A stretch of DNA of 63,770 nucleotides, counting the filler, from Collodictyon triciliatum (Eukaryota), in NCBI GenBank assembly GCA_043381765.1. It is 6 parts of 6 records of this genome, joined end to end, with 100 filler letters (N's around TTAATTAATTAA, not from the genome) between each part and the next. Parts side by side here need not be neighbours in the genome. Positions count along the whole stretch, not along the records: positions 11,296 to 22,495 come from JBHJMP010002462.1; 5 more parts are not named here. One strand, given 5' to 3'. The position numbers and the translations under genes were made by a program. The notes beneath the pieces are model-generated. The model was not told the origin of the DNA. It saw only the letters and a program-made list of their open reading frames with translations, and ran no database searches. Positions 8,916-43,873 of the stretch are shown here, piece after piece (the stretch's first letter is position 1; every line of letters begins with the position of its first letter).

Positions 8916-10949
8916 TCACCTCCTGAGTTCATCCACCTCGATGTTTTCGGTAAGAAACAAGATTCGGCGGTTGTTTTTTTGGAAGCTCCAATAGAATCGG
9001 AGTGCAAAGATACCGATAGAAAAGAAAGATGTTGATAGTGTGATTCTTGAACCCGCTATGACTTCTCCTTGGAAGGTAAGGTGCCTCTCCTTCGAAAAAG
9101 TGGGTCCTATATTTAGTTTGCACAAAATGGCGATGCAGAAGGACCATAAAACACCAACAATCGAGATGGATGAAAGTTTCCTGTACTTTATAGTAAAAGT
9201 GTCTATCATGATGCACCATTTCACTGTCAAAGCAGTATAGAACCAGAATATAATTCGGTTATCCCATTCACATAAAACACCGGATGAGATAATAGTTCTG
9301 ATGATTAAAAATACTACGTACCAATAGTCAAATGAAAACAGCATATGACGAAATAGGAATAAGTTAGTGGCTGTAATCATTTGGACAAGAAAGAAGATTG
9401 TCCCAAGAACAGCAACGACAACCCCAGTGCACCAAAACGTCGGGCCCAAATCATAACCGACAGAGAGGGGAACCGAAAATAGAATAGATGCAAAACAGAC
9501 GATAACGCCACATGTGTTGTAATACCTAGATCTCATAATCTTTGATAGTCTTTTGTATTTTTTCGTGACGTAAAGGTGAAATATTGTCTGACGTGGGTCG
9601 TATTCAACAATCTTTTCGCGGAGGATACCAATAACCAGATGCCTTTGTGGATCTAGTTCTTTGGTGAGTTCAAAATGAATGTCAACTGTCTTATTTTCAT
9701 CCCGTTCCTCTATGCAATAGTTTATAGAATTCATGTCTTTTCCTGGCGTATTGGAGGAGCATTCAGGTAACGTTGGGCACGAATTATCTTCCTTCACGTT
9801 TGTGAATTGGCCTTTCCAGGATGCAGCTGACCTATCCGTGACACTACCTTTTAGAATGTCCCCCTTCCCAGTTTGGCTCTCATCGATGTGGTAGAAGTTG
9901 GCAAGGAAAACGATATTTGTTGGCTTTTTGAGTACTAAGTGATTAAATATAATTCTCATCAGGTATACCAAAAATGTCGTCAGATTGTCGAGTGCTTGGA
10001 GCCTAGCATCCAGTAGTTCTATATCTGTCGACCTATAGTATATGCTTTCTGTGTGGTAATCGACCAAGTGAAATAGAAGTATCACGATGATAGGGACGTA
10101 TGACACAGCACCGATAAAAGTGGCTATTCTCATGACGGAGTAGTATTTCCCAGCATGTGCATCATATAGAATAAGCAAAAGTACACTAAGTAAGGAGTGT
10201 GCGACAATACAGAAGATTTCGATGCTCGGACCCCAGAGTAGAATAAAGCATATATGGAAAGAGACGACGCTGTAAGCAGCAAACCAAAAATTGAAAGACT
10301 TGACTAGTTCTTTGATAATGTCAATCCGGAGGAAAATGGAGTGGTATATGAGTAGGTTGGTACAGAAAAAAATATTCACGGGAACATATATCCCACTAGG
10401 TATTAGCTGTGCCTCAAAGCAAATAGAGAGTATATTGACATGGCAAATAATCCATAGAACGGTGATGGACAAAGTCATCATCCAGTGTTTATATGTGTAA
10501 AGTATGAATTCAAATATACGGTCATTCCTTATCAGAATCGAGAGCAGCGTCTTTCTTCTTTCAATTACTTTTACGTCTCTTGCTATTCTAAGCTTGATGA
10601 GTGAATGGGCATTGTACACTGGCACAGATTGTTCGTGACCAATGTTGGAGGCAGTGCATTGTCTATTTATGTTTTGATTGGTGTCTGAAATGTTCTGATT
10701 CTCCTCTTTGGATACATCATTGAGGCCAGTCAATTCTCTCGCACTGTTTGAAACGAGTGAGTTCTTTTTTTGTTCCCATGCGTTTCGCCTTTGAATGGAA
10801 ACTGATACACCAATGTCTTCCTCCTCTGAGACGTTGGTCATGAGCCTGACTATGGAAATAGTGGAGTTGTCAAAATGATCATCATAATTTGCTCCGGCAT
10901 GGTTTTGTTCAAAGCCAAAGGGAGTGTGAAAATGAAAAAAAATCACCAT
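8916..10949 (-). CDS. Multi-pass membrane protein with two homologous hydrophobic halves, single long exon
   Basis: 677-aa uninterrupted ORF. Two blocks of about 6 hydrophobic segments are separated by a polar linker and share a motif (IIKELVKSFNFWF / LFRHMLFSFDYWY). True start uncertain. Confidence 0.75.
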   Translation of the reverse strand: MVIFFHFHTPFGFEQNHAGANYDDHFDNSTISIVRLMTNVSEEEDIGVSVSIQRRNAWEQKKNSLVSNSARELTGLNDVSKEENQNISDTNQNINRQCTASNIGHEQSVPVYNAHSLIKLRIARDVKVIERRKTLLSILIRNDRIFEFILYTYKHWMMTLSITVLWIICHVNILSICFEAQLIPSGIYVPVNIFFCTNLLIYHSIFLRIDIIKELVKSFNFWFAAYSVVSFHICFILLWGPSIEIFCIVAHSLLSVLLLILYDAHAGKYYSVMRIATFIGAVSYVPIIVILLFHLVDYHTESIYYRSTDIELLDARLQALDNLTTFLVYLMRIIFNHLVLKKPTNIVFLANFYHIDESQTGKGDILKGSVTDRSAASWKGQFTNVKEDNSCPTLPECSSNTPGKDMNSINYCIEERDENKTVDIHFELTKELDPQRHLVIGILREKIVEYDPRQTIFHLYVTKKYKRLSKIMRSRYYNTCGVIVCFASILFSVPLSVGYDLGPTFWCTGVVVAVLGTIFFLVQMITATNLFLFRHMLFSFDYWYVVFLIIRTIISSGVLCEWDNRIIFWFYTALTVKWCIMIDTFTIKYRKLSSISIVGVLWSFCIAILCKLNIGPTFSKERHLTFQGEVIAGSRITLSTSFFSIGIFALRFYWSFQKNNRRILFLTENIEVDELRR

Positions 10950-11195
10950 ACTGAAGGTTTTTTTTTAATAAATCTCGGTCGTGATTAATAGCCAATTATG
11001 AAGATAACATGTTTTGAATATGAATATGGAAATGGAAATATGAGAAGAGAAAAAGAGAAAAAAAAGAGAAAAAAAAGAGAAAAAAAAGAGAAAAAAAAGA
11101 GAAAAAAAGAGAAAAAAAAGAGAAAAAAAGAGAAAAAAGAGAAAAAAAGAGAAAAAAAAGAGAAAAAAAGAGAAAAAAAGAAAAAAAAAAGAAAA

Positions 11196-11295
11196 NNNNN
11201 NNNNNNNNNNNNNNNNNNNNNNNNNNNNNNNNNNNNNNNTTAATTAATTAANNNNNNNNNNNNNNNNNNNNNNNNNNNNNNNNNNNNNNNNNNNN
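11196..11295. other. Artificial contig spacer (44N-TTAATTAATTAA-44N)
   Basis: Six-frame stop linker at 11240-11251 within Ns. Confidence 0.97.
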
Positions 11296-11488
11296 TTTTT
11301 TTTTTTTTTTTTTTTTCTTTTTGTTTTTTTTTTTTTTTTTTGGGTGGGGGTGGGGGGGGGGGGGGGGGGGGGCTGCCTTTTTTTTATTTTGGTGTATGGT
11401 CTAAACCCGTTCTTACCGTTCATTTATATGTGACTGACCATCATCATTAAAAATCTTCATCATCATTTACAATCCTTCTCGCGAGCAG

Positions 11489-14400
11489 CGATGTCTTTCC
11501 CTGCCGATGGAGTAGAGAAAATGTACAGGAATGATATCGACGAAGTCTCTACATTCCTTCACCGGATGCACAATCGCTCGTTCATGCTCTTCAACCTTAG
11601 TGAGCGCAAATATGACTACTCGAAGTTTGGTAATTTGGTAAGATATATCATATACATTTGTAGAAGCAACATGGCACAAAATCATATCTCGTCTCCATGA
11701 GAGCACAGTTTTTCTTCTTATAATTATAGGCCTAAGATGGCCTTTTTTCAACGCAATTTTTATGTATTATCCGTATTTTTTTTTTCAGGCGCATATTTAC
11801 GTTGGCATTCGAAACTTCTAAGCCATGTTTTTTTTTTCTGTGGCTTTAATTAAATGATAATACAGACAATACCTAATCATCACAAACCCTTGTATATACA
11901 TACATTCAGGTCACAGACTGTGGGTTTCCAGACCATCACTCTCCCCCGCTGGACCTTCTCTTTAAAATATGCAAGGGCATTGACGCACATCTCCACTGCT
12001 CTGATCAGAATGTGGCTGTGATTCATTGTAAGGCCGGTAAAGGGAGAACGGGAACCACAATTGCATCCTATTTAATGTACTGTGGATTGTTCCGGGATGC
12101 AGAGAAAGCACTGAGACATTTTGGTGACCGCCGATCAACGAAAGGGATAGGAGTCACATGGCCTTCACAGAGACGGTTTGTTCATTGGTATTCTAATAGC
12201 ACTATTTCAACCTCTTCTTTGTTAAAAAAAAAAAAAAGAAGAAATCAGCATTCTTTGGGGGAATGTAATCTTTTATTCAAGATTTAATTCCATTATCAAA
12301 ATTACATTATTACTAGAACTCGTCATCAATATATCTGAATAGCTCGACTCATTTTCACTCTTCGTAGATATGTTTATTATTTTCATCAGATATGCTATGA
12401 AGCATATATCCCCCACCCGCTGCCTCTTTTGCTGGGCAGAGTTGTTCTTCGAAACATACCACTTTATGGGGCAGTTTGTGTCCTCTCATCTATGCTTAAA
12501 TAGAAATGTATCTCTTCCAGTTCGTCAATATGTGTTTCTACTTCCTATATTATGGCAAATTCACACATTAATAGATAAAAAAAAATACGCACTCAATTTG
12601 CGATTAGGAGGAACAGTGCCGACCGAGATTGGAAGTATTCTGCGCTGGAAAGCTAGTCTATTCATCCGCTCCTGAAGACGAGAATTTCACCTCAATTCCG
12701 TAATTCTCTGATTTCCTTTATTCCATTCGCGCGCAACTCAAGCGCGTATTTTATAAGGCGGTTTTGGTCTTGTTATTGTACATCCCTTTTTGTGTTGCTG
12801 CCATTTTTTTTGAACGATCTTGTTGATATAACAATATCCATCTGTGCGATCAATTCTGAATTATCAAACGTCACCTAAAACAGAGCAAAGGAATTGTTAT
12901 GAAAAATAATCTAATACAGATCGTACAAAAAGTCCGAACAACCGGTTTTCGCCATAAATGCGGTATTGCGGGGTGATATTTACATACGCTGCTATCACTG
13001 CAGTAAAGGAAAGTCAACGCTATTTTTTCGAGTCCAGTTTCACACTGGGTTTGTATCTAGAGATGACCCAACGTACATACTAAAGAAGGCTGACCTTGAC
13101 GAGGCTTGTAAAGACAGAAAGTACTTTTTATTTCCCCTCTCTTTATTTAATTCAAAAGGAGACAGAAAGTCCTTTGAATCTGTTGACGCTTTTTTTTCTA
13201 CACGTCTATTTTGCTATTCGCCATATAATACGGTGTCTGACTATGATACATTAGGATCGATGACGAATTTGCAGTCGCGTTCGAGTTTAAGCATCTTTCT
13301 CAAGAAGAATCTCCAGTAGAATTGGTGGATAATTTCAATTGGAATTTACACATTGACGAGACAAAAAATGGATCGTATGTATTATTTGCGTTGTGTACAT
13401 TCTCAAGAAAGAATCAACCTTATGAAGCTTCCCAGATGTCGCGGCGTCCTTCATTTTCGTTCATATAGGATTTGCTACTTTCGAAGGCCACTCACGTCGA
13501 ATGATTTCAGTTCCGAATCGCTTTCTGATACTGTGAAATCAGAAGTATTGGCGAGACCAATATCTGTAATCTATTAATAATACTCGATGAACCATACTAA
13601 ATTATATATGTGTACCTGCCTAGTTTGTAATGTATTATATGGCTGTATGTAGTTGACAGAAGCGTCCTTTGAGAAAACATTTCCAAAAGTGAGCTTAAAA
13701 ATTTCTATTTTCTTCACTCTATTTAACTTGGAGTTTTTTCTTTCAATATCTCTTTTATATATTTATTTATCGTTTTCTTGTTTTATATCATTTTTATTCC
13801 TTTTTTCCACCACATCAACCATGTTTTGTGGTGATATATTTATACCAATTTTAGGCTGTATCAACATACCTGGTTGGTATTGGGAGAGTATATGTTGGCT
13901 TTGAAGACGGTTCCCTGTCCCTTCTCAATATCGAGGTTCATCTATATAGCAAATATCCTTAATGAAATAAAAGTGAATATGACCGAGATTCATCACATGA
14001 CAAAATTTAGAATGGAACTGAGAAAGCTATCAAGGCTCACTCCATACGGGTATCATCAATTATCAGGGACTCCCAAGAAATATTCACCGGTTCTGATGAT
14101 GGTTCCATCAAGATATGGGACATCCAAGTAAATTATACTATTGAAGCAATATTTCCCCGAATCAGAAACCTATATGTTCATGTGTAATATAGCAATGGCC
14201 ACCAAGACTCTAAGCTTGGGCCCTATGCGACACAATGACCCCTTTTCCCCTCTTTATTCGAATCAATAGAAGGAAGGGGGTTTTGATTTAAAGTAAAATA
14301 GTAATCATTGTATGTTCACAAAGACATTAGATTTTGTCGAAGCCCTGGATGGTCATTCAGATGTTGTATCGCAACTTATGGTTCATCGCTCGTTCTTATA

Positions 14401-16288
14401 CTCTGCGTCGCACGATGGCACTGTTCGTGTGTGGGATTTGACCATTAAGGTATACCACAAATAGGAGAGAAACGACACAAATATTAGAATAATTTGTTCA
14501 ATAATTTCGCAATGAATGAATATCATATTCAAGTCTAACATGTCCCAATGTCTTGCCATCTAACTCCCTCTCTTCCCAAAAATAAAATAAAAGCAACGGT
14601 ATATCAATTTAATCATGATATGCTCACCTGTGCTGAAAATATCCATCAACGAAAACGTTTTATACGTTGGGAGTACAGATGGAAACATCCGCTCTTACGA
14701 TTTGAAGGTGACTTGGCAACAAAACTGAATTTAGAGAGACAAAGTTTTTTTTATGTATCAATTTTTGTGAAACAGGAATATAGTATTATTATGTCTCGAG
14801 AGCATGGAATTCTACCCAAAAGATAACTCATGAAAAACACTCCTCTTTGAATAGAATAAAGAGGGGAAAAAAAGCTCATAGAAAACAATCCTAATCAATA
14901 TATTTCTATTCGGGCAGGAATCTGACCGGCCTCTTATAAGGAACTACGAGAAGAAGTCTGACTCTCTTCAAAACATCGTTGTTATTAACGACATTCTTTA
15001 CTTTGCCACCGGACCCAAGATTTTCCTTCTAAATACCAACGTAGTTAATTGTTGATTATTATTTTTTTAAAAAAAGAAAAAAGGGAAGTAAAATCGTGGT
15101 GTTTGGTTAATCCACCAGTCAAATGTATTATTTTTAAAAAGAGAATACAAATAGAAGTATGAAAATGAATCCTACTTATTCATCAGACAGGGGAGTGTTT
15201 GTGCCAATACGACTTCCAGATTCCGATAATATCGTTTGAGGTCTACCAAGCATTGATATTTGTCCAGCATTATGATAGAATACAAGTTGTTGATTGCAGG
15301 GTTTGTTCAAATTGATTTTTAGGTTAAAAAATTGATGAATATTACAACATTTCAAAATTACAACATTTGAGGATTTTTTTTTCCTTTATTCCAACATTTC
15401 AAGTGATAAACAAACTTAATATATTCCTAATTATGTAGAATAAGTAAACCCACTTGAAATATTTTCCCTCTCTAACAACTAGCGAGGAGTACGAACCTCT
15501 ATATTTCCCATCAAGGCAGACAGCATTAGTCTCCATGAAGACCACCTCACAATCAGCCAAAGACATGTCTTGAATTCATTCGATATCGAGGTATTGCATA
15601 TATATTCATATATATATTCATCATCAATATTCACAAAGTAATTCTAATATACAAATACCAAATAACTGATCTGGGAGAAGGGATAAAAAAAAAAACAGCC
15701 AAAATTTGAGCTGCAAACTTCCCAAACTTGTGCACCTCATTCATCATTTATGTAATATTGAAAAAAATAAGATCAATATCTAAAATATTATGTCTCATCC
15801 CGAATCAAAAGACCATTACAGGGCCGCGGTTACTCTCCAGTCCACGTAACTCTGGAACAAGCCGCCCGGTGGTTCCTTCTAACCCAGTAGATACCCTGAG
15901 CCAGAGCAAAGTTTTTGAGGAGTATGATGAGGATGATAATGACGATTATGAAACGGATTGGGGGGAGGGCTCTTTGGACTACCTATCGTCCTCTGTTGAA
16001 GCTGGAAGTCGTCAGAGTGTTGGGGAGGAATCTGCCGACCTTGAAAAATCTCGCCGAAAGAAGGCATCCTCTCTCAACAAACTCACCCCTGTCAAAACAC
16101 CACGAACACTATCAAGAACAATAGAACAGGTCGATGATTCTGGAGGAAACGTTAGTCCGCTGGCCGAAAATGCAACAGAGAGGGACGGAAGCGTAGAATC
16201 ACCCACGCTAAGAGTCGAAATATCTTCCAGCAAAGAGGCATCAGAATCCCACAACGCGGCTGAGTCGAGTGGCAATCTTCCTGGCTGA
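11489..16288 (+). CDS. PTEN-family phosphatase + PTEN-C2 domain + WD40 repeats + acidic/Ser-rich tail (5' truncated)
   Basis: Phosphatase domain: AMSFPADGVEKMYRNDIDEV, FNLSERKYD, FPDHHSPP, HCKAGKGRTG, GVTWPSQRRYVYYF. C2 domain: LRGDIYIRCYH...FRVQFHTGF...KADLDEACKD. WD40 exons: FTGSDDGSIKIWD, GHSDVVSQL...LYSASHDGTVRVWD, LYVGSTDGNIRSYD. The terminal exon ends at TGA 16288. Confidence 0.85.
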
Positions 16289-16797: not shown

Positions 16798-19174
16798 ATG
16801 GGCGGAGAACAGTGGGTGGCGGGAATGCTGCTGAATCTCGTTGGCTCAACCACCATCAACTTTGGAACAAATCTGCTAAAGTACTCGCACCTGCTCAACG
16901 AAGGCAAAACAAAGGACGACTCGGCCGAGAACAAAAAGGCTGTCTGGCTCTCTGGTTTGCTTTGCTCCTCCTTTCTTTTCTTTCTTTCTCCTTCTTTCTG
17001 CTTGAATACGCTTTGTCACGCGCCTTCTCGCCTCATTTCTTCGGCCGCCCTTCTTGGCTGTGTAAACACGGCTACGCAAGGCGCCATATTCTGGCCAGAG
17101 ATTCCCTTCTGATCAGCTTTCCTCTGTTTGCTGAGCAGGTTTGTGTCTTTTCATCATCGGGAATGCGTTCAACTTCCTTTCTTTTGGCTATGCTGCGCAG
17201 TCGCTCTTGGCAGCCATCGGAAGCATTCAGTTCATATCCAATGTCTTGTTTGCCGCTTTCCTCTTGAATGAAAAGGTTCTCTTTTTCTTTTTTCTTTTTC
17301 TTTTTTCTTTTTCTTTTTTCTTTTTTCTTTTTTCTTTTACCTGCCTGCTTACTTCAAGGAAAGCTTCGGCTATTTTATTTATCGCCAATAATATATCGAA
17401 ATGCTCATAATCAGTCCATCCTGTGCATTTCACGTAATTGAGTGTTGTACGCGCATCGCATGGAATATTATGAATTGCATATTTACATGGATACTAATGA
17501 GATTCAAGATTACTCGTAAGGTTGTAGAAGGGACTTTTGGCGTCGTTGTTGGAAATACTTTTGCTCTTATCTTTGCTAGTCACGAATCCAAAAGTATTTT
17601 TTGACATCATATCTTTAAGAAAAAATGAAAGGAAATGTCAAATAGGTATCAAAACTGGATTAAAGTAGTATTATATGTTGAGTTTATTCTATTATATCTT
17701 TGTAATTGTATCGAAAGAAAATACTATCACAACGGTTTGATGTTGACTCACTTTACGATTCTAATTAATAAGTACCACATAGACTATTCTGCGGACGAAA
17801 TTCAGGGCATGTTTACTCGCACTCCGTTTCTTGCATATCTTATATTCATATCCATATCGGTGGTCGCATTATCAATATTATATTCAAAAGCAAAAAAGAA
17901 AGTGAAGGTTGGAGACGAATACATAATTGAGCATAAACAAAATTGATCAAGTATCCATGATATTATTCTTTGCTACCAGAATATAATAAATCAAATTGAC
18001 TTGCGTTGCAGGACAACCTTCCTTCCAAACATATGTCATTTATCATTCCTTTATGCTACGCTGGAACGTCTGGAATGATCGGTTCACTTAGTGTTCTTTT
18101 GGCAAAATCAACGTAAAAAATTGAATCATCGAGTAACTGAGCAGTGATAGATTCACTAAACAGAGAGAAAACTCAATAATCTTGCTGTCTATGTGCAATA
18201 GGTCCCAACTAGTCCGAACATCTTTTTCGGGTGACAATCAATTCAAATATGGATTTACATATTGCATGTTATTTGGGTGGATTCTCCTCACAATTTACTG
18301 GGTAATATGATTAATCAAGTAGCCACCACATAAAAACATTCGTGCTCAAAAAGTGTACCATCCCAGAGCGACATTAACATTATTCTTACCAGTTGGATGA
18401 AACCGAATTCTGAAGGAAATTTTTTTAAGGAGCTCTATTTTTTTTTTCCCAATCTATTACTCACTTTTTTCCCTTCCGCTTAATCTTTAAAATGTAGCTG
18501 CAAAGACTTAACGGAGGCCTTCGAAAGTTCCCCAGCATGGTAATTGTACCGGCTCTGCAAGTATTCTGGACGGTATTTTCGATAATTGGCGGAGGAATCT
18601 TCTTTAACGAATTTGCCTCATTCACTCTGTAAACTTCAGAATCCATCATTAATCAATGTGAAGTCAGAAAGAAAATAATACTGGCTATATCAATAAAAAA
18701 AAACTTTCATATAGACAAACATTTTATTTTCTTTTTATCATATCGACTCTTAGTGTTCAATCGATTGGGTTCATATCTGGTGTACTCATCATAGTCGGAG
18801 GTGTTATACATCTTTCAACCCATCAGGATGACCCTATGAACCCCAAGGGTACATCCTTAGATTTTATTGAATTCTTTCAAACAGAATATGTTGACCCAAC
18901 CTCTTTCATGGTAAAACAAGGGAAAGTTTTGTTTCCTAGGTGTTATAAAAAGTACGCGCGCATCATTGCGGTAATCATCCTCTTAATTCGAAAAAAAACT
19001 GATCTGAATTTTTTTTTAACTATCACAGAATTGATTGAATCTCTCAAGATGGAAAACGAAATAATATCTCAGTCGACAGCCCACGAAAAAGCCCCGACTA
19101 ACTATGTAGTTATGGACAAAATGCAATCTCTGCATTCTAGAAATGACTCCAGTAATCCAGAAACCCCTGGATGA
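16798..19174 (+). CDS. NIPA-family (DMT superfamily) magnesium transporter, resembling the plant NIPA8 type
   Basis: MGGEQWVAGMLLNLVGSTTINFGTNLLK, GNAFNFLSFGYAAQSLLAAIGSIQFISN, SVLLAKS, LNGGLRKFPSMVIVPALQVFWTVFSIIGGGIFFNEF. About 8 GT-AG exons. Confidence 0.9.
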
Positions 19175-36558: not shown

Positions 36559-37983
36559 TTATTCATTTTCTTGTTTTGAATTTAGAAGGTTTATCATTAT
36601 TGTAACATACTTTAATACTTTGTCTACATCAAAATAATTGCGATCCCCCAACAATCCATAATACGGGAATTCTAACAATCTTGATAATGTTGCATAGCAT
36701 ATTACTACACCACCAGGTCTATCAGGAGATATTGGAGAGGCATCGTGTATTTCAATTACACCTGTGTATTTAGAGAATAACATGTTCACTAATCCTGCTC
36801 CATGATGACCGATAATTACTTTGGCTGACCGAAATAGCTTGATTGTTTCTTCCATTTTCATTTCGTCATATTTAACAACCAGATATTCAGGCTCGTATAC
36901 TTTCTTTAAAGCCATGACCATGTCATCTGTGTTAAAAACAGCTCTAGATTTTTTCCTATGTATAACAATCAGAGTATTTTGATTACCCTGCTGCAGGTTT
37001 GGAGGAACTTGTGCACTCGGATTTTGGATTAAAGTTTGGACGTTATTATTATAGGCCAAATCAAGGTGCTGCCTCAATAATTTTAACTCAGGTAATTGTG
37101 GAATAGCGCAGTGGGGAATTGTGGGTATTATGACCTCTCTGAAGACATAGCGGCACGACTTGAACCTATCAATGTCAATTATTCTACTTTTCTCTATTCC
37201 CATTATTTTAATGGCAAATTTTATGAAATCTGCCAAAGGTTCAATTAGAACCTTTATTTTTGAATCTTCTCTCAATTCTTTCGGTAATATGAACCAATGT
37301 GGAATGGTTTCGGTCCAAAAATGGTAATACGCTATATATCCATACTTACCTATGGGTAAAACAATAACTCTATCGTTGTGAGTTACATTTTTAGTTTTCC
37401 ACTGGCATTCAGAAGTTGGTATCGAAACTTTCAAGTTAGTCTTCTTACCCAAGTATTAAAGGTATTGCAACCTCCAGAAAAAATAAAATTGCCATCTGCT
37501 ATAAGTAATTCATGATTATGGGCCATTACACTGGCATTTATCCCTAGAGATATCCAATATTCTCCAACAGTGCTTAGGAGAGGATAATTGTTTCCTTTGT
37601 AAAGTCCCAGACCATTATTTTTAACGTCTTCGTAAGGTAGTTTCAGATGGCTCCAATACGGCTGCAAGTCACGTTCAATCACGTGTGTCGTAGAATTAAA
37701 AAAATACAGCCCAAGGTACTTAGGTAGTAAGTGAATACCTTCAAATTTCAATGACCCACTACAAATTGTCTGGCCATCGACATATTCCTAAGAAAAATGC
37801 AGACGTTACCATTTGATCGAGTATTATCGGTTAAGGAGACGTCGGTAACTATACCTTGACAGAAATCTCAGAATTTTTTCCGTCAGAAAAATCTAATTTA
37901 AACTTGTTCTTATAGCAGTAGGCATCCAAGGATGAATTAACTAAAAACAATATTTGAAGAATAGACCAGCCTTTCATTACCAT
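36559..37983 (-). pseudogene. Glycosyltransferase family 61 / DUF563-like protein with a 1-nt frameshift near 37455
   Basis: Signal-peptide exon MVMKGWSILQILFLVNSSLDAYC..., intron 37788-37854, then YYHFWTETIP and IIGHHGAGLVNMLFS...VIEI. The frame breaks at FSGGCNTFNT/LGKKTN. Could be a sequencing error rather than a true pseudogene. Confidence 0.7.
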
Positions 37984-40765: not shown

Positions 40766-40989
40766 AATCCTGTGTATTCTGATATAGAATAGTCAATCTG
40801 AATATTCTCGAACCTAAAGGTATCATAATGATTAGCCATGAATTCAGCTTACGTGACCTGGTAGCCTGCACCTTCAACAGACACGAATCATTACTTTCAA
40901 ACAATATGCGAACTAATTCGAGCTTCAAATTACATCTTAATCTTTTCCTTTCCTTGGATTGAACTAGTGAAAATCATCAACCAGAATCC

Positions 40990-41800
40990 CTTTCAAACCG
41001 GAGAAGATGAGCCGTTCGGCCGAAAATATAGGCATTATAGACCCGCCGATAGTCAGAAGCTGGAAGGAAGCCCGTATACCTCAGCTACTCCCGAAACACC
41101 ACGCCCTACTTCTCAATATCTCCAACAGAGAGCTGTGGATAGGTGCGCGCGTAGTCCATGCAGCAACGATCTCTCCAGAATGCACCATGTGCCATAGTGG
41201 AGATGACTCTATCGAACACACATTGGTTAAGTGCTCTCTTGCTCAAAAAGTGACAGAGTCTACCCACAAGATGCTCTCTGAGCTTGATTATGCTCCCAAC
41301 CGACTCAGCGCATCTGACATCCTGTTTGGCGCACAATACCAAAAGACCCACGACTCTAGAATACTCTGGACAGTCAAAAGGAGACATACACTTGTGTTTT
41401 TGGAGTGTGCGTGTATTCTCTCGCTCTAATGATTCACCCGAACGAGAAATCAATGTATCCAGGCTGGAAAGCTTCATGCATTACATCTTCCTGAACAGCC
41501 TGCTGAAACACGCTCGCATTCTTCGCTACTCTGACCGCAAGCGAGGAGAGATGTGGGAATGTGTCGTGCAATATCTCCCACAACACTTACAAATTCTGTT
41601 TTCCCGCACAACCAATCAGCCAGTTGAGTCGCCCACCTGACCAACTCGCTATCACTGATTTCTTTTCAGTGCTACCCTTTCCACAGTAGTGTCTTCTCTT
41701 ACTCACTTGAGTTTGCTCTCTACCTATGCGCTCCCATCTCGCCCCGTTGTATGGCATAACCTCGCTGCGTTTTGAAGCGAGTGAAGGAAAAATAAAACTA
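40990..41800 (+). mobile_element. Non-LTR retrotransposon 3' end, family B (zf-RVT, ORF end, 3' UTR with AATAAA)
   Basis: SWKEARIPQLLPKHHALLLNISNRELWIG...CTMCHSGDDSIEHTLVKC. Frameshift near 41390, ORF ends at 41640, AATAAA near 41790. Confidence 0.88.
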
Positions 41801-42410: not shown

Positions 42411-43873
42411 ATGGCCCTTGGCATCTTGTTGTTACTTTTGTGGTGCATCACATCCAGTGCGTGCTTGGAGATGGATGTGATAAATATCCATTCTGAGAAA
42501 AACCCAAATACCTATAGCATGAAGGTATACATATTGAAGACTATGATAAATGCAGAGCTTCCCAAATGTTAAAAAATGTTCCAACTCGCTCACAGGAATA
42601 TGTCGATTATTACCGAGCCAACGGAGCCACTTACAACCGTGAGGGACTTAACATGTTACCTGAGTATGACGAATTGTATTGGTTTTCTAGCTGTTTCTTT
42701 TTTGTTGAACCTCTACTAGATGAGGATTGGAGAGGGAGACCTAGGGCAGGCTTCCAATACTCATGGATATATAAGAAGTACATGAAGAATCAAGAGTGGC
42801 CCACAGCTGGTATGCTGCAACGTGATGCAAGTGGAAACTTGATAAAACTAGAGAAATTTTCACCCTTTATAATGCACGAAAGAGAGCATTGGATAAATTT
42901 ACACAATGAAACGCAATTCTTTCTTCATGATCGAGGAAGTGAGGTATTTGTAACAGACTCCAAGAGTGTGTTTTCTGCAACGTGTCGATATCAATTATCA
43001 ATCATGGGATTTAATCACGCCAACATTAGTGTCTCCACAACGAAATGTGTCACGAGTGCCAACTATGACTTAAATGGAGAACGTGTTATTGTTCTTCCGT
43101 TGGGAAAGTGGGGACAAGTCAATTTTTATCACATATGGGTCGATACGCTTATGCACTGGTTCACCTTACCAGATAATATTAAAAATGATGAATCGATAAA
43201 GGTGTTGATAGATCGGCGTACACCTTTTTCCAAGTATGCCCTCGAAGTTATTGGAATATCAGAACAGCGTATAATTGAGTTTGATCGAGGAAAAGACTGC
43301 TCATTATCATTTAAAGAGATTATATTGCCAACGCTGCCTATTTGCATGAAACCTATACTACCTCAAATGACGTTGTTAAGACATCACTTCGGGGTAAGAG
43401 AGTTCAACTTTACTCATTACAAACTTCCCTTTCGAAGTCCCGCGATTTCATTCTCGTCATTTTTTTCATCATTAAGTTCAAGTGTTATGATAGTTTTGGA
43501 TCGTCGTCAGTCCAGACCTGTCAATAACACGGATGAGATGGTTTCTGTGCTCCAATTTAAGTTCAAGGATAAATGGATAGTACAAAAATATGACCATGAG
43601 CCAATGGAGGACACCATTAGATTTTTCAAAAATGCCAGAATAATAATTGGGCATCATGGTGCCGGACTGGCAAATATGCTATTTTCATCTTCGGCAGGCA
43701 TCATAGAAATACATGATACCTCATTTAGACCCGATGGTATAATTGACTGTTACTCTGTAATGGCAAAAAAGTTACAATTTCCTTATATGGCTATTTCAGG
43801 ACACAGAAGTTTTTACGACATCCCTAAAGTGATGGAGTATATTGAAAGGATGATTGCAATAGTCACCCAATAA
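42411..43873 (+). CDS. Glycosyltransferase family 61 / DUF563-like protein with N-terminal signal peptide
   Basis: Exon 1 42411-42524 (MALGILLLLLWCITSSAC...), intron 42525-42595, exon 2 in frame with NFYHIWVDTL and IIIGHHGAGLANMLFS...IIEI (the HGAGLxN motif of GT61). Confidence 0.82.

Follow-up and report, generated by a model that had tools for sequence, protein, structure and literature searches.

A Collodictyon triciliatum gene predicted to join a PTEN phosphatase-C2 module to a seven-bladed WD40 propeller

The window analysed here is a stretch of 63,770 nucleotides (filler included) from the genome of Collodictyon triciliatum (assembly GCA_043381765.1), in which contigs are chained by N-TTAATTAATTAA-N blocks. 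The contig starting at window position 11296 (G000:C2462) carries the gene under study, which combines a PTEN-type phosphatase and C2 domain with WD40 repeats. Forward-frame reading together with splice signals revealed 16 exons on the plus strand between 11489 and 16288, forming a single stop-free frame that ends in a TGA stop (Table 1). All the introns are of the GT..AG type and measure 75–272 nt; the GC content of the exons (0.36–0.50) is mostly higher than that of the introns (0.24–0.39). The frame, the RNA evidence and the homologues together define a predicted product of ~811 aa, comprising a basic N-terminal motif, a PTEN-family phosphatase, a C2 domain, a linker, a seven-bladed WD40 propeller and an acidic tail. 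A preliminary description, made from the same DNA, had placed the PTEN module and the repeats on one strand with no obvious intergenic gap, and the spliced frame bears this out. The stretch that it marked opens at 11489; this position is the acceptor of the second coding exon and not the start of the gene, the first coding exon being located on another contig (C11743). A 104-nt RNA overhang before 11487 is identical, base for base, to the C11743 exon, and the phase at the end of that exon fits. The Met codon at 11491 was accordingly rejected as the start. The assembly break between both contigs was probably caused by a microsatellite in the intervening intron.

Table 1. Coordinates of the exons of the PTEN-C2-WD40 gene and of the adjoining contig joint (window positions unless a contig is named; exons numbered within the window).
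Feature	Position	Strand	Evidence or remark
Joint between two contigs, N44-TTAATTAATTAA-N44	11196-11295	no strand	
First coding exon (36 codons + 1 base, basic N-terminal motif)	contig G000:C11743, L024 278-170	minus	outside window
Exon 1 (second coding exon), start of PTEN phosphatase domain	11489-11637	+	79% identical to P0009 36-88
Exon 2: FPDHH loop 11925-11939, P-loop HCKAGKGR 12024-12047, TI-loop GVTWPSQ 12150-12170	11910-12175	+	
Exon 3, phosphatase end / C2 region	12368-12473	+	RNA joints
Exon 4, phosphatase end / C2 region	12608-12699	+	RNA joints
Exon 5, PTEN-type C2	12920-13120	+	Pfam PTEN_C2
Exon 6, last C2 strand (first 12 codons) and linker start	13255-13374	+	aligned to P0009 310-348
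Exon 7, linker	13469-13565	+	G-S-I-C-(Y/F)-F motif across exon 6/7 junction
Exons 8-9, WD repeat 1	13653-13688, 13855-13935	+	RNA joints in X1 and X3
Exon 10, WD repeat 2	14011-14127	+	Pfam WD40; RNA joint into exon
Exon 11, WD repeat 3, GHSDVVSQL...WD	14324-14449	+	Pfam WD40; 57% identical to P0009 458-504; no RNA cover
Exon 12, WD repeat 4	14594-14707	+	acceptor inferred
Exons 13-15, degenerate WD repeats 5-7, one each, all phase 0	14918-15040, 15187-15300, 15483-15590	+	RNA joints; collinear with P0010 and P0017; seven-blade model of P0017
Exon 16, 158-aa acidic/Ser-Thr tail (29 D+E, 40 S+T) and stop	15812-16288	+	RNA extends to at least 16563

The domain content was examined by a Pfam scan run exon by exon on 14 single exons. 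Exon 2 matched DSP/PTP families and exon 5 matched PTEN_C2 (PF10409, E 1.2e-12 at 12921-13118); the HCKAGKGR and FPDHH motifs lie where the preliminary description had put them. Exons 3–5 together complete the phosphatase and supply the bulk of the C2 domain. Only two repeats of the window gene pass the cut-off for WD40 (exons 10 and 11; E values of 9.9e-7 and 3.2e-7 between them), another exon reaching just E 0.13, and eight of the 14 exons showed no family or a weak chance match. The later repeats are degenerate and score too low one by one. The acidic, Ser-rich tail that had been noticed earlier is encoded in exon 16; a short alternative last exon with its acceptor at 15822 was rejected, as the RNA splices at 15812.

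Transcript evidence came from RNA runs X1–X4, used as contigs. X1 and X2 belong to one study and had been labelled as RNA by guess, their spliced joints showing that they are cDNA, and X3 is a freshwater metatranscriptome from another study. X4 gave no matches, and an X2 match at 14252-14290 is a spurious low-complexity one. Twelve of the 15 introns are present as joints in these contigs. One X1 record (record 3, 422 nt, depth 4.8) opens at exon 6, from where joints of equal depth lead by way of exons 7, 8 and 9 to exon 10; judging from depth and length, they probably belong to this one record. Since exon 6 opens with the last C2 strand, this record bridges the C2 domain and the repeats. RNA spanning 13100-14100 had been proposed as a check of the fusion, and the contig joints do link the C2 side to the repeats, the intron at 13121-13254 itself not being seen among them. 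An explanation by two adjacent genes was rejected on the basis of the RNA joints, the orthologue open reading frame (ORF) described below and the intron sizes.

Several observations weigh against a single fused product. Besides the intron just mentioned, those at 14128-14323 and 14450-14593 are not among the RNA-contig joints, and no single RNA contig covers the whole gene. X1 and X2 are possibly the genome's own source, and X3, which is independent, reaches only the tail and the joints on the WD side. Contigs end in cDNA adapter sequence at 14940 (X2) and 16017 (X1), and the intron at 15041-15186 is retained in one X1 contig. In addition, both isoforms of the Diphylleia rotans orthologue stop early, at the places where read-through of introns 7 and 11 of the window gene would stop; these are probably intron-retaining assemblies, a regulated short form being possible in D. 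rotans. The main product could then be a short PTEN-C2 protein produced by retention of intron 7 (with a stop after three codons), the propeller exons representing a minor isoform or a separate unit. Such a product would resemble D. rotans P0001 (383 aa), which ends two residues past the matching intron, as intron 7 read-through would, and would be in line with the cDNA 5' ends found within the propeller and the tail. However, all contigs seen at introns 7–9 are spliced, the adapter ends fall within exons that come after the passage from C2 to WD, no intron is longer than 272 nt, which leaves no intergenic gap, and the propeller is conserved in the orthologue (61% identity over 118 aa), so that this alternative is considered very improbable. 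One gene almost certainly encodes one fused protein.

Conservation in diphylleids argues in the same direction. The best match of the window protein is D. rotans TRINITY_DN3434, with 66% identity over 504 aa, rising to 85% within exon 2. The ranking of homologues points to a diphylleid (CRuMs) as the most likely host, and an amoebozoan one was rejected on this basis. The longer isoform of the D. rotans gene, P0009, is one transcript-derived ORF running from Met1 to repeat 3 (the Pfam C2 match ends at residue 321), which aligns with a single one-residue gap and spans without gaps two of the three junctions unseen in RNA. Two further D. rotans proteins, P0010 and P0017, have complete ORFs that follow the entire propeller in collinear order, with 39–41% identity to the window protein over 632–644 aa. 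Their orthologue in the Collodictyon genome is a paralogue of the window gene that lies intact on one contig (C2212), with 15 introns at matching positions; the intron after its C2 DKR motif (L011 6996-6891) is best fitted as GC-AG. Because the same layout is found in P0010, P0017 and the C2212 paralogue, the fusion is, judging from these sequences, older than a duplication within diphylleids. Only the window gene shows the long acidic tail with its extra intron; the paralogues are without such a tail. The genome also encodes standalone canonical-type PTENs with FDDHN and GVTIPSQ motifs (contigs C3676 and C1691) and, on the minus strand of C1201, where both Pfam matches lie, a PI3K carrying a Ras-binding domain. 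Two further DHH-type PTEN-like genes, with a DHHPPP loop and HC[L/V]AGKGR, were seen on contigs C1953 and C1347 (L013, L015) and are near P0155 by eye.

The region downstream of the linker is organized in seven repeats of 36–42 aa with phase-0 intron bounds, one made up of exons 8 and 9 and the others of exons 10 to 15, one each. The preliminary description had recognised at least four WD40-type repeats; these are real, the GHSDVVSQL repeat lying on the exon at 14324-14449, and the count rises to seven. An AlphaFold model of the paralogue P0017 (mean pLDDT 78.9, pTM 0.55) displays the PTP-C2 module at residues 1–321 and 28 strands at residues 380–646, which are read as seven predicted blades closed by an N-terminal strand. 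The structure prediction that had been suggested as a check thus returned, for the paralogue, PTEN and C2 (TM 0.86 to PTEN) plus a seven-blade propeller. In a Foldseek search with this model PTEN, VSP and auxilin appeared on top (TM ≤0.86), followed by generic propellers with 11–18% identity. Two features of the model weaken its bearing on the window protein: it represents a paralogue, built from 29 alignment rows of which few cover the propeller, and the linker (residues 352–389, pLDDT <50) and the pTM value leave the arrangement of the domains poorly defined. Assignment of the propeller to a specific family was rejected; a region search returned generic WD40 proteins and the orthologue (13 matches among 440 candidates), and Foldseek was likewise generic.

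Each WD repeat occupies its own phase-0 exon or exons in both Collodictyon paralogues (window 13653-15590; L011 6350-4555), so that in-frame skipping of single blades is conceivable; no joint skipping a blade was seen in the RNA contigs of the window gene. The Collodictyon genome is otherwise intron-rich, yet it contains many long intron-free WD40 frames (700–2400 aa) on dozens of contigs, which have the look of an expanded group of large proteins, of repeat or surface type. Two of them, on C1313 (L027 2-4660, minus) and C1613 (L028 4992-9998, plus), are mostly WD40 arrays, one also having Ephrin_rec_like repeats (E 2.4e-61).

The spread of the layout was explored with a word search using P0010 (337 matches among 5630 candidates, the best 120 examined) and a HMMER search (best 150 of 3051 at E 1e-30), whose matches were screened with a propeller profile and Pfam; only top-ranked matches were covered, and the counts are therefore lower bounds. 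Besides the window gene, the fusion is present in three Diphylleia genes and the C2212 paralogue. Among the top-ranked matches, direct PTEN-C2-WD40 proteins were also found in Carpediemonas membranifera (KAG9390257.1, P0136), in P0052 and in the P0143 cluster, two members of which had been auto-named 'WD40 repeat protein/protein-tyrosine phosphatase' by JGI; P0191 is maybe another one, with a propeller score of just 4.6 bits. A related arrangement, PTEN-C2-PH-(C2)-propeller, occurs in at least five proteins (Stenamoeba, Vermistella, Balamuthia, an MMETSP record and an ENA record). In the PTEN-like Balamuthia mandrillaris P0021/P0133 the PH domain is interrupted by the WD40 propeller, which is either real or a gene-model artefact. 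Other partners of PTEN domains in the word search were PH, LIM, FYVE, EF-hand, SH2, kinase and a second PTEN domain; P0018, P0135 and P0139 (Amorphochlora amoebiformis among them) carry two full PTEN-C2 modules in tandem. A search for PTEN_C2 with WD40, recommended earlier, thus yielded further carriers in Diphylleia, Carpediemonas and amoebae. A description of a PTEN-WD40 fusion was not found in the open-access literature searched, though genome papers or their supplements may mention one, and within the excerpt of the Entamoeba review PMC6563779 the WD40 mention belongs to the legend of a kinase figure. The earlier view that a WD40 fusion is not an established class therefore holds as regards the literature searched; the fusion is not a one-off, being present in several protist lineages. 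The layout is a little-noticed architectural variant of the known PTEN family, and its sequences are already public.

The place of these proteins within the family was addressed with a careful tree of the PTP and C2 domains (52 rows chosen from 233, 317 columns, LG+G4, the bootstrap not fully settled). PTENs of the FDDHN type and TPTE2 split from a large DHH group at 100/99, this canonical side consisting of three motif-typed rows and two TPTE2 rows, with human PTEN not among them. Tensins, GAK, the diphylleid clade (100/95) and the PH-PTENs of Amoebozoa all fall in the DHH group, whose backbone shows no resolution. The diphylleid proteins lay beside the amoebozoan PH clade in a FastTree tree (88) and in a quick tree (97, with GAK inside the group); this sister relation was not kept in the careful tree. 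As regards canonical PTEN, the window protein carries Ala126 and falls outside the group both by the tree (100/99) and by its TI pair, which reads TW. The eight direct fusions were not recovered as one clade, although a tree forced to group them was not rejected (AU p 0.24). A G-S-I-C-F motif located 20–60 residues past the C2 domain was found in seven of the eight direct-WD rows (the eighth having a variant), 17 of 33 PH rows, none of 108 other DHH rows and two of 27 canonical-binned rows, both mis-binned PH proteins; the pattern was written after the positives were known, and 15 near-duplicates, rows with an incomplete C2 and rows with <40 post-C2 residues were left out. For the PH-type P0020, modelled from 32 rows (pTM 0.75), the motif at residues 352–359 has a pLDDT of ~92 and is predicted to be an ordered element; the value in the diphylleid model is ~57. 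The propellers gave no signal of a shared origin across lineages, nine PTEN-linked propellers scoring 5–58 bits and 13 unrelated WD40 propellers 15–64 bits (best single-domain scores against a diphylleid-only profile).

These data leave room for a tentative proposal, to which we give somewhat less than an even chance: an unrecognised PTEN subfamily of ancient origin, with the G-S-I-C-F linker as its hallmark and with an ancestor that had the PTEN-C2-WD40 layout before CRuMs, Amoebozoa and metamonads split. Amoebae would have gained PH-C2, some of them dropping the propeller, and animals and fungi would apparently have lost the subfamily. If true, the PTEN family would have one more deep branch alongside PTEN, VSP, tensin and auxilin, and the partner of the propeller would indicate a place where phagotrophic cells have long controlled PIP3/PI(3,4)P2.

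A closer inspection of the catalytic module showed that HCKAGKGR and FPDHH align to the P-loop and the WPD-loop of PTEN, with both CX5R and the WPD acid present. Placement of the diphylleid clade on the tensin and GAK/auxilin side of the tree would suit a catalytically silent scaffold of the kind that auxilin and vertebrate tensins have in their PTEN-like domains. We regard this as the least probable of the alternatives, since CX5R, the WPD-loop Asp and the TI-loop Gln have all been kept, in the best-conserved part of the protein (exon 2), whereas the GAK rows of the same tree have a degenerate CLDGRAA. The window protein is, on its residues, very probably an active enzyme. The N-terminal exon encodes a basic motif, the orthologue aligning to PTEN 4–15, which presumably binds PI(4,5)P2 as it does in PTEN.

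Ala126, Lys125, Lys128 and Thr167 are PTEN-like, and neither the VSP-type Gly126 nor the ET pair is found. According to the excerpt of PMC6182344, Ala126 and TI167/168 determine the D3 specificity of PTEN, and A126G or a TI-to-ET change moves it to D5. Two points tell against a D3 assignment: the Ile168 position is occupied by Trp, a residue found there in 3 of 215 rows, all from the protein's own orthogroup, and the change tested at the TI pair in that source is TI-to-ET only. The earlier inference of a phosphoinositide 3-phosphatase consequently stands as far as the intact PTEN-type site and the D3-type Ala126 and Thr167 are concerned, and is qualified by Trp168 and by a position outside the canonical PTEN group. 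A D3 lipid phosphatase remains the likely prediction. The enzyme might instead be active with a shifted specificity (D5, another phosphoinositide or a phosphoprotein), its propeller presenting the substrate as in F-box/WD40 or kinase-WD40 proteins. The Trp lies in a loop that helps to set specificity (excerpt of PMC6182344), the clade is not canonical PTEN, the paralogues have Met at the Lys125 position, and the top natural propeller matches in Foldseek are the phosphodegron binders beta-TrCP/FBXW11/Cdc4/Fbw7, at just 11–15% identity. These matches, however, reflect generic WD40 likeness and the four PTEN-like residues oppose a VSP-type shift; among the alternatives this one is the strongest, at roughly one chance in six.

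The propeller could also act mainly in cis: bound to the acidic tail, which is phosphorylatable, or to the catalytic module, it would switch the enzyme off, like the tail of PTEN. The tail is suited to this, being acidic, rich in Ser and Thr and provided with four CK2-like S/T-x-x-D/E sites; paralogues nevertheless have the propeller without such a tail and no confident propeller-phosphatase packing is seen in the P0017 model, which makes cis regulation unlikely. A role chiefly as a localising or partner module is the fairly probable one. The scheme that we favour, with a probability moderately above one half, is that of an active phosphoinositide 3-phosphatase placed by the partners of its propeller. 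The N-terminal motif and the C2 domain would dock the protein on anionic membranes in a PTEN-like manner, and the Cys/Arg/Asp site would take the 3-phosphate off PI(3,4,5)P3 or PI(3,4)P2. The propeller, on its loose tether, would bind protein partners and thereby set the place of action of the phosphatase, doing the job of the PH-C2, SH2-PTB, kinase-J and voltage-sensor modules of sister proteins. Because the organism also has standalone canonical-type PTENs, the window protein is probably a site-specific specialist.

Other features of the window were also recorded. The next gene (16798-18301 onward, plus strand), ~500 nt past the stop, is spliced and encodes a magnesium transporter of the NIPA type (Pfam E 1.9e-4, below the cut-off), with RNA joints at 16953-17138 and 18112-18202. 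On a contig other than that of the PTEN-WD40 gene, 8919-10964 (minus) holds an intron-free frame of ~680 codons with membrane-like hydrophobic stretches and no Pfam match at 1e-3. Two glycosyltransferase-61 frames lie at 36562-37455 (minus) and 42518-43870 (plus), and a zf-RVT domain at 40971-41426 (plus) is probably what is left of a non-LTR retroelement.

Enzymes of the PTEN family owe their targeting to fused modules, the recognised set coming mostly from animals and plants. A propeller-aimed and apparently active form, kept in duplicate in CRuMs and echoed in metamonads and amoebae, widens this set. CRuMs are the sister group of Amorphea (excerpt of 10.1101/2024.05.15.594285), and the form is relevant to the organisation of phosphoinositide signalling before animals, fungi and amoebae went separate ways. 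The surprise is moderate, since PTEN domains readily enter fusions, each component is well known and nothing implies new chemistry.

With human PTEN (PDB 7JVX, 1D5R) the window protein shares the basic N-terminal motif, the PTP domain with HCKAGKGR and the C2 domain (E 2.9e-48 for the orthologue; TM 0.86 for the paralogue model); it differs in having FPDHH in place of FEDHN, Trp at position 168 and a propeller between the C2 domain and the acidic tail. The amoebozoan PTEN-C2-PH proteins (Dictyostelium DDB_G0289979, for which no paper was found in the open-access literature searched, and the Stenamoeba, Vermistella and Balamuthia WD40 forms) share the DHH-type phosphatase and the post-C2 G-S-I-C-F motif, whereas their PH and second C2 domains are not found by Pfam in the window protein. 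Carpediemonas KAG9390257.1, P0052 and P0143 agree in domain order and carry a related linker motif but have a CLAG(R/K)GR active site, and their propellers come no nearer to the diphylleid ones than unrelated WD40s do. Tensin, auxilin/GAK and VSP/TPTE likewise combine a PTEN-C2 module with a lineage-specific targeting or control module; their SH2, PTB, J, kinase and voltage-sensor domains do not appear in Pfam scans of the window exons, the orthologue or the paralogues. In the case of VSP/TPTE, Gly126, the ET pair and the voltage sensor all lack a counterpart here, the N-terminal exon encoding just 36 residues. The Dictyostelium myosin heavy chain kinases, which use a C-terminal seven-repeat WD40 domain for targeting their catalytic domain, contain an unrelated enzyme, and nothing in this analysis ties the window propeller to that family; the likeness is one of design, a catalytic domain followed by a propeller.

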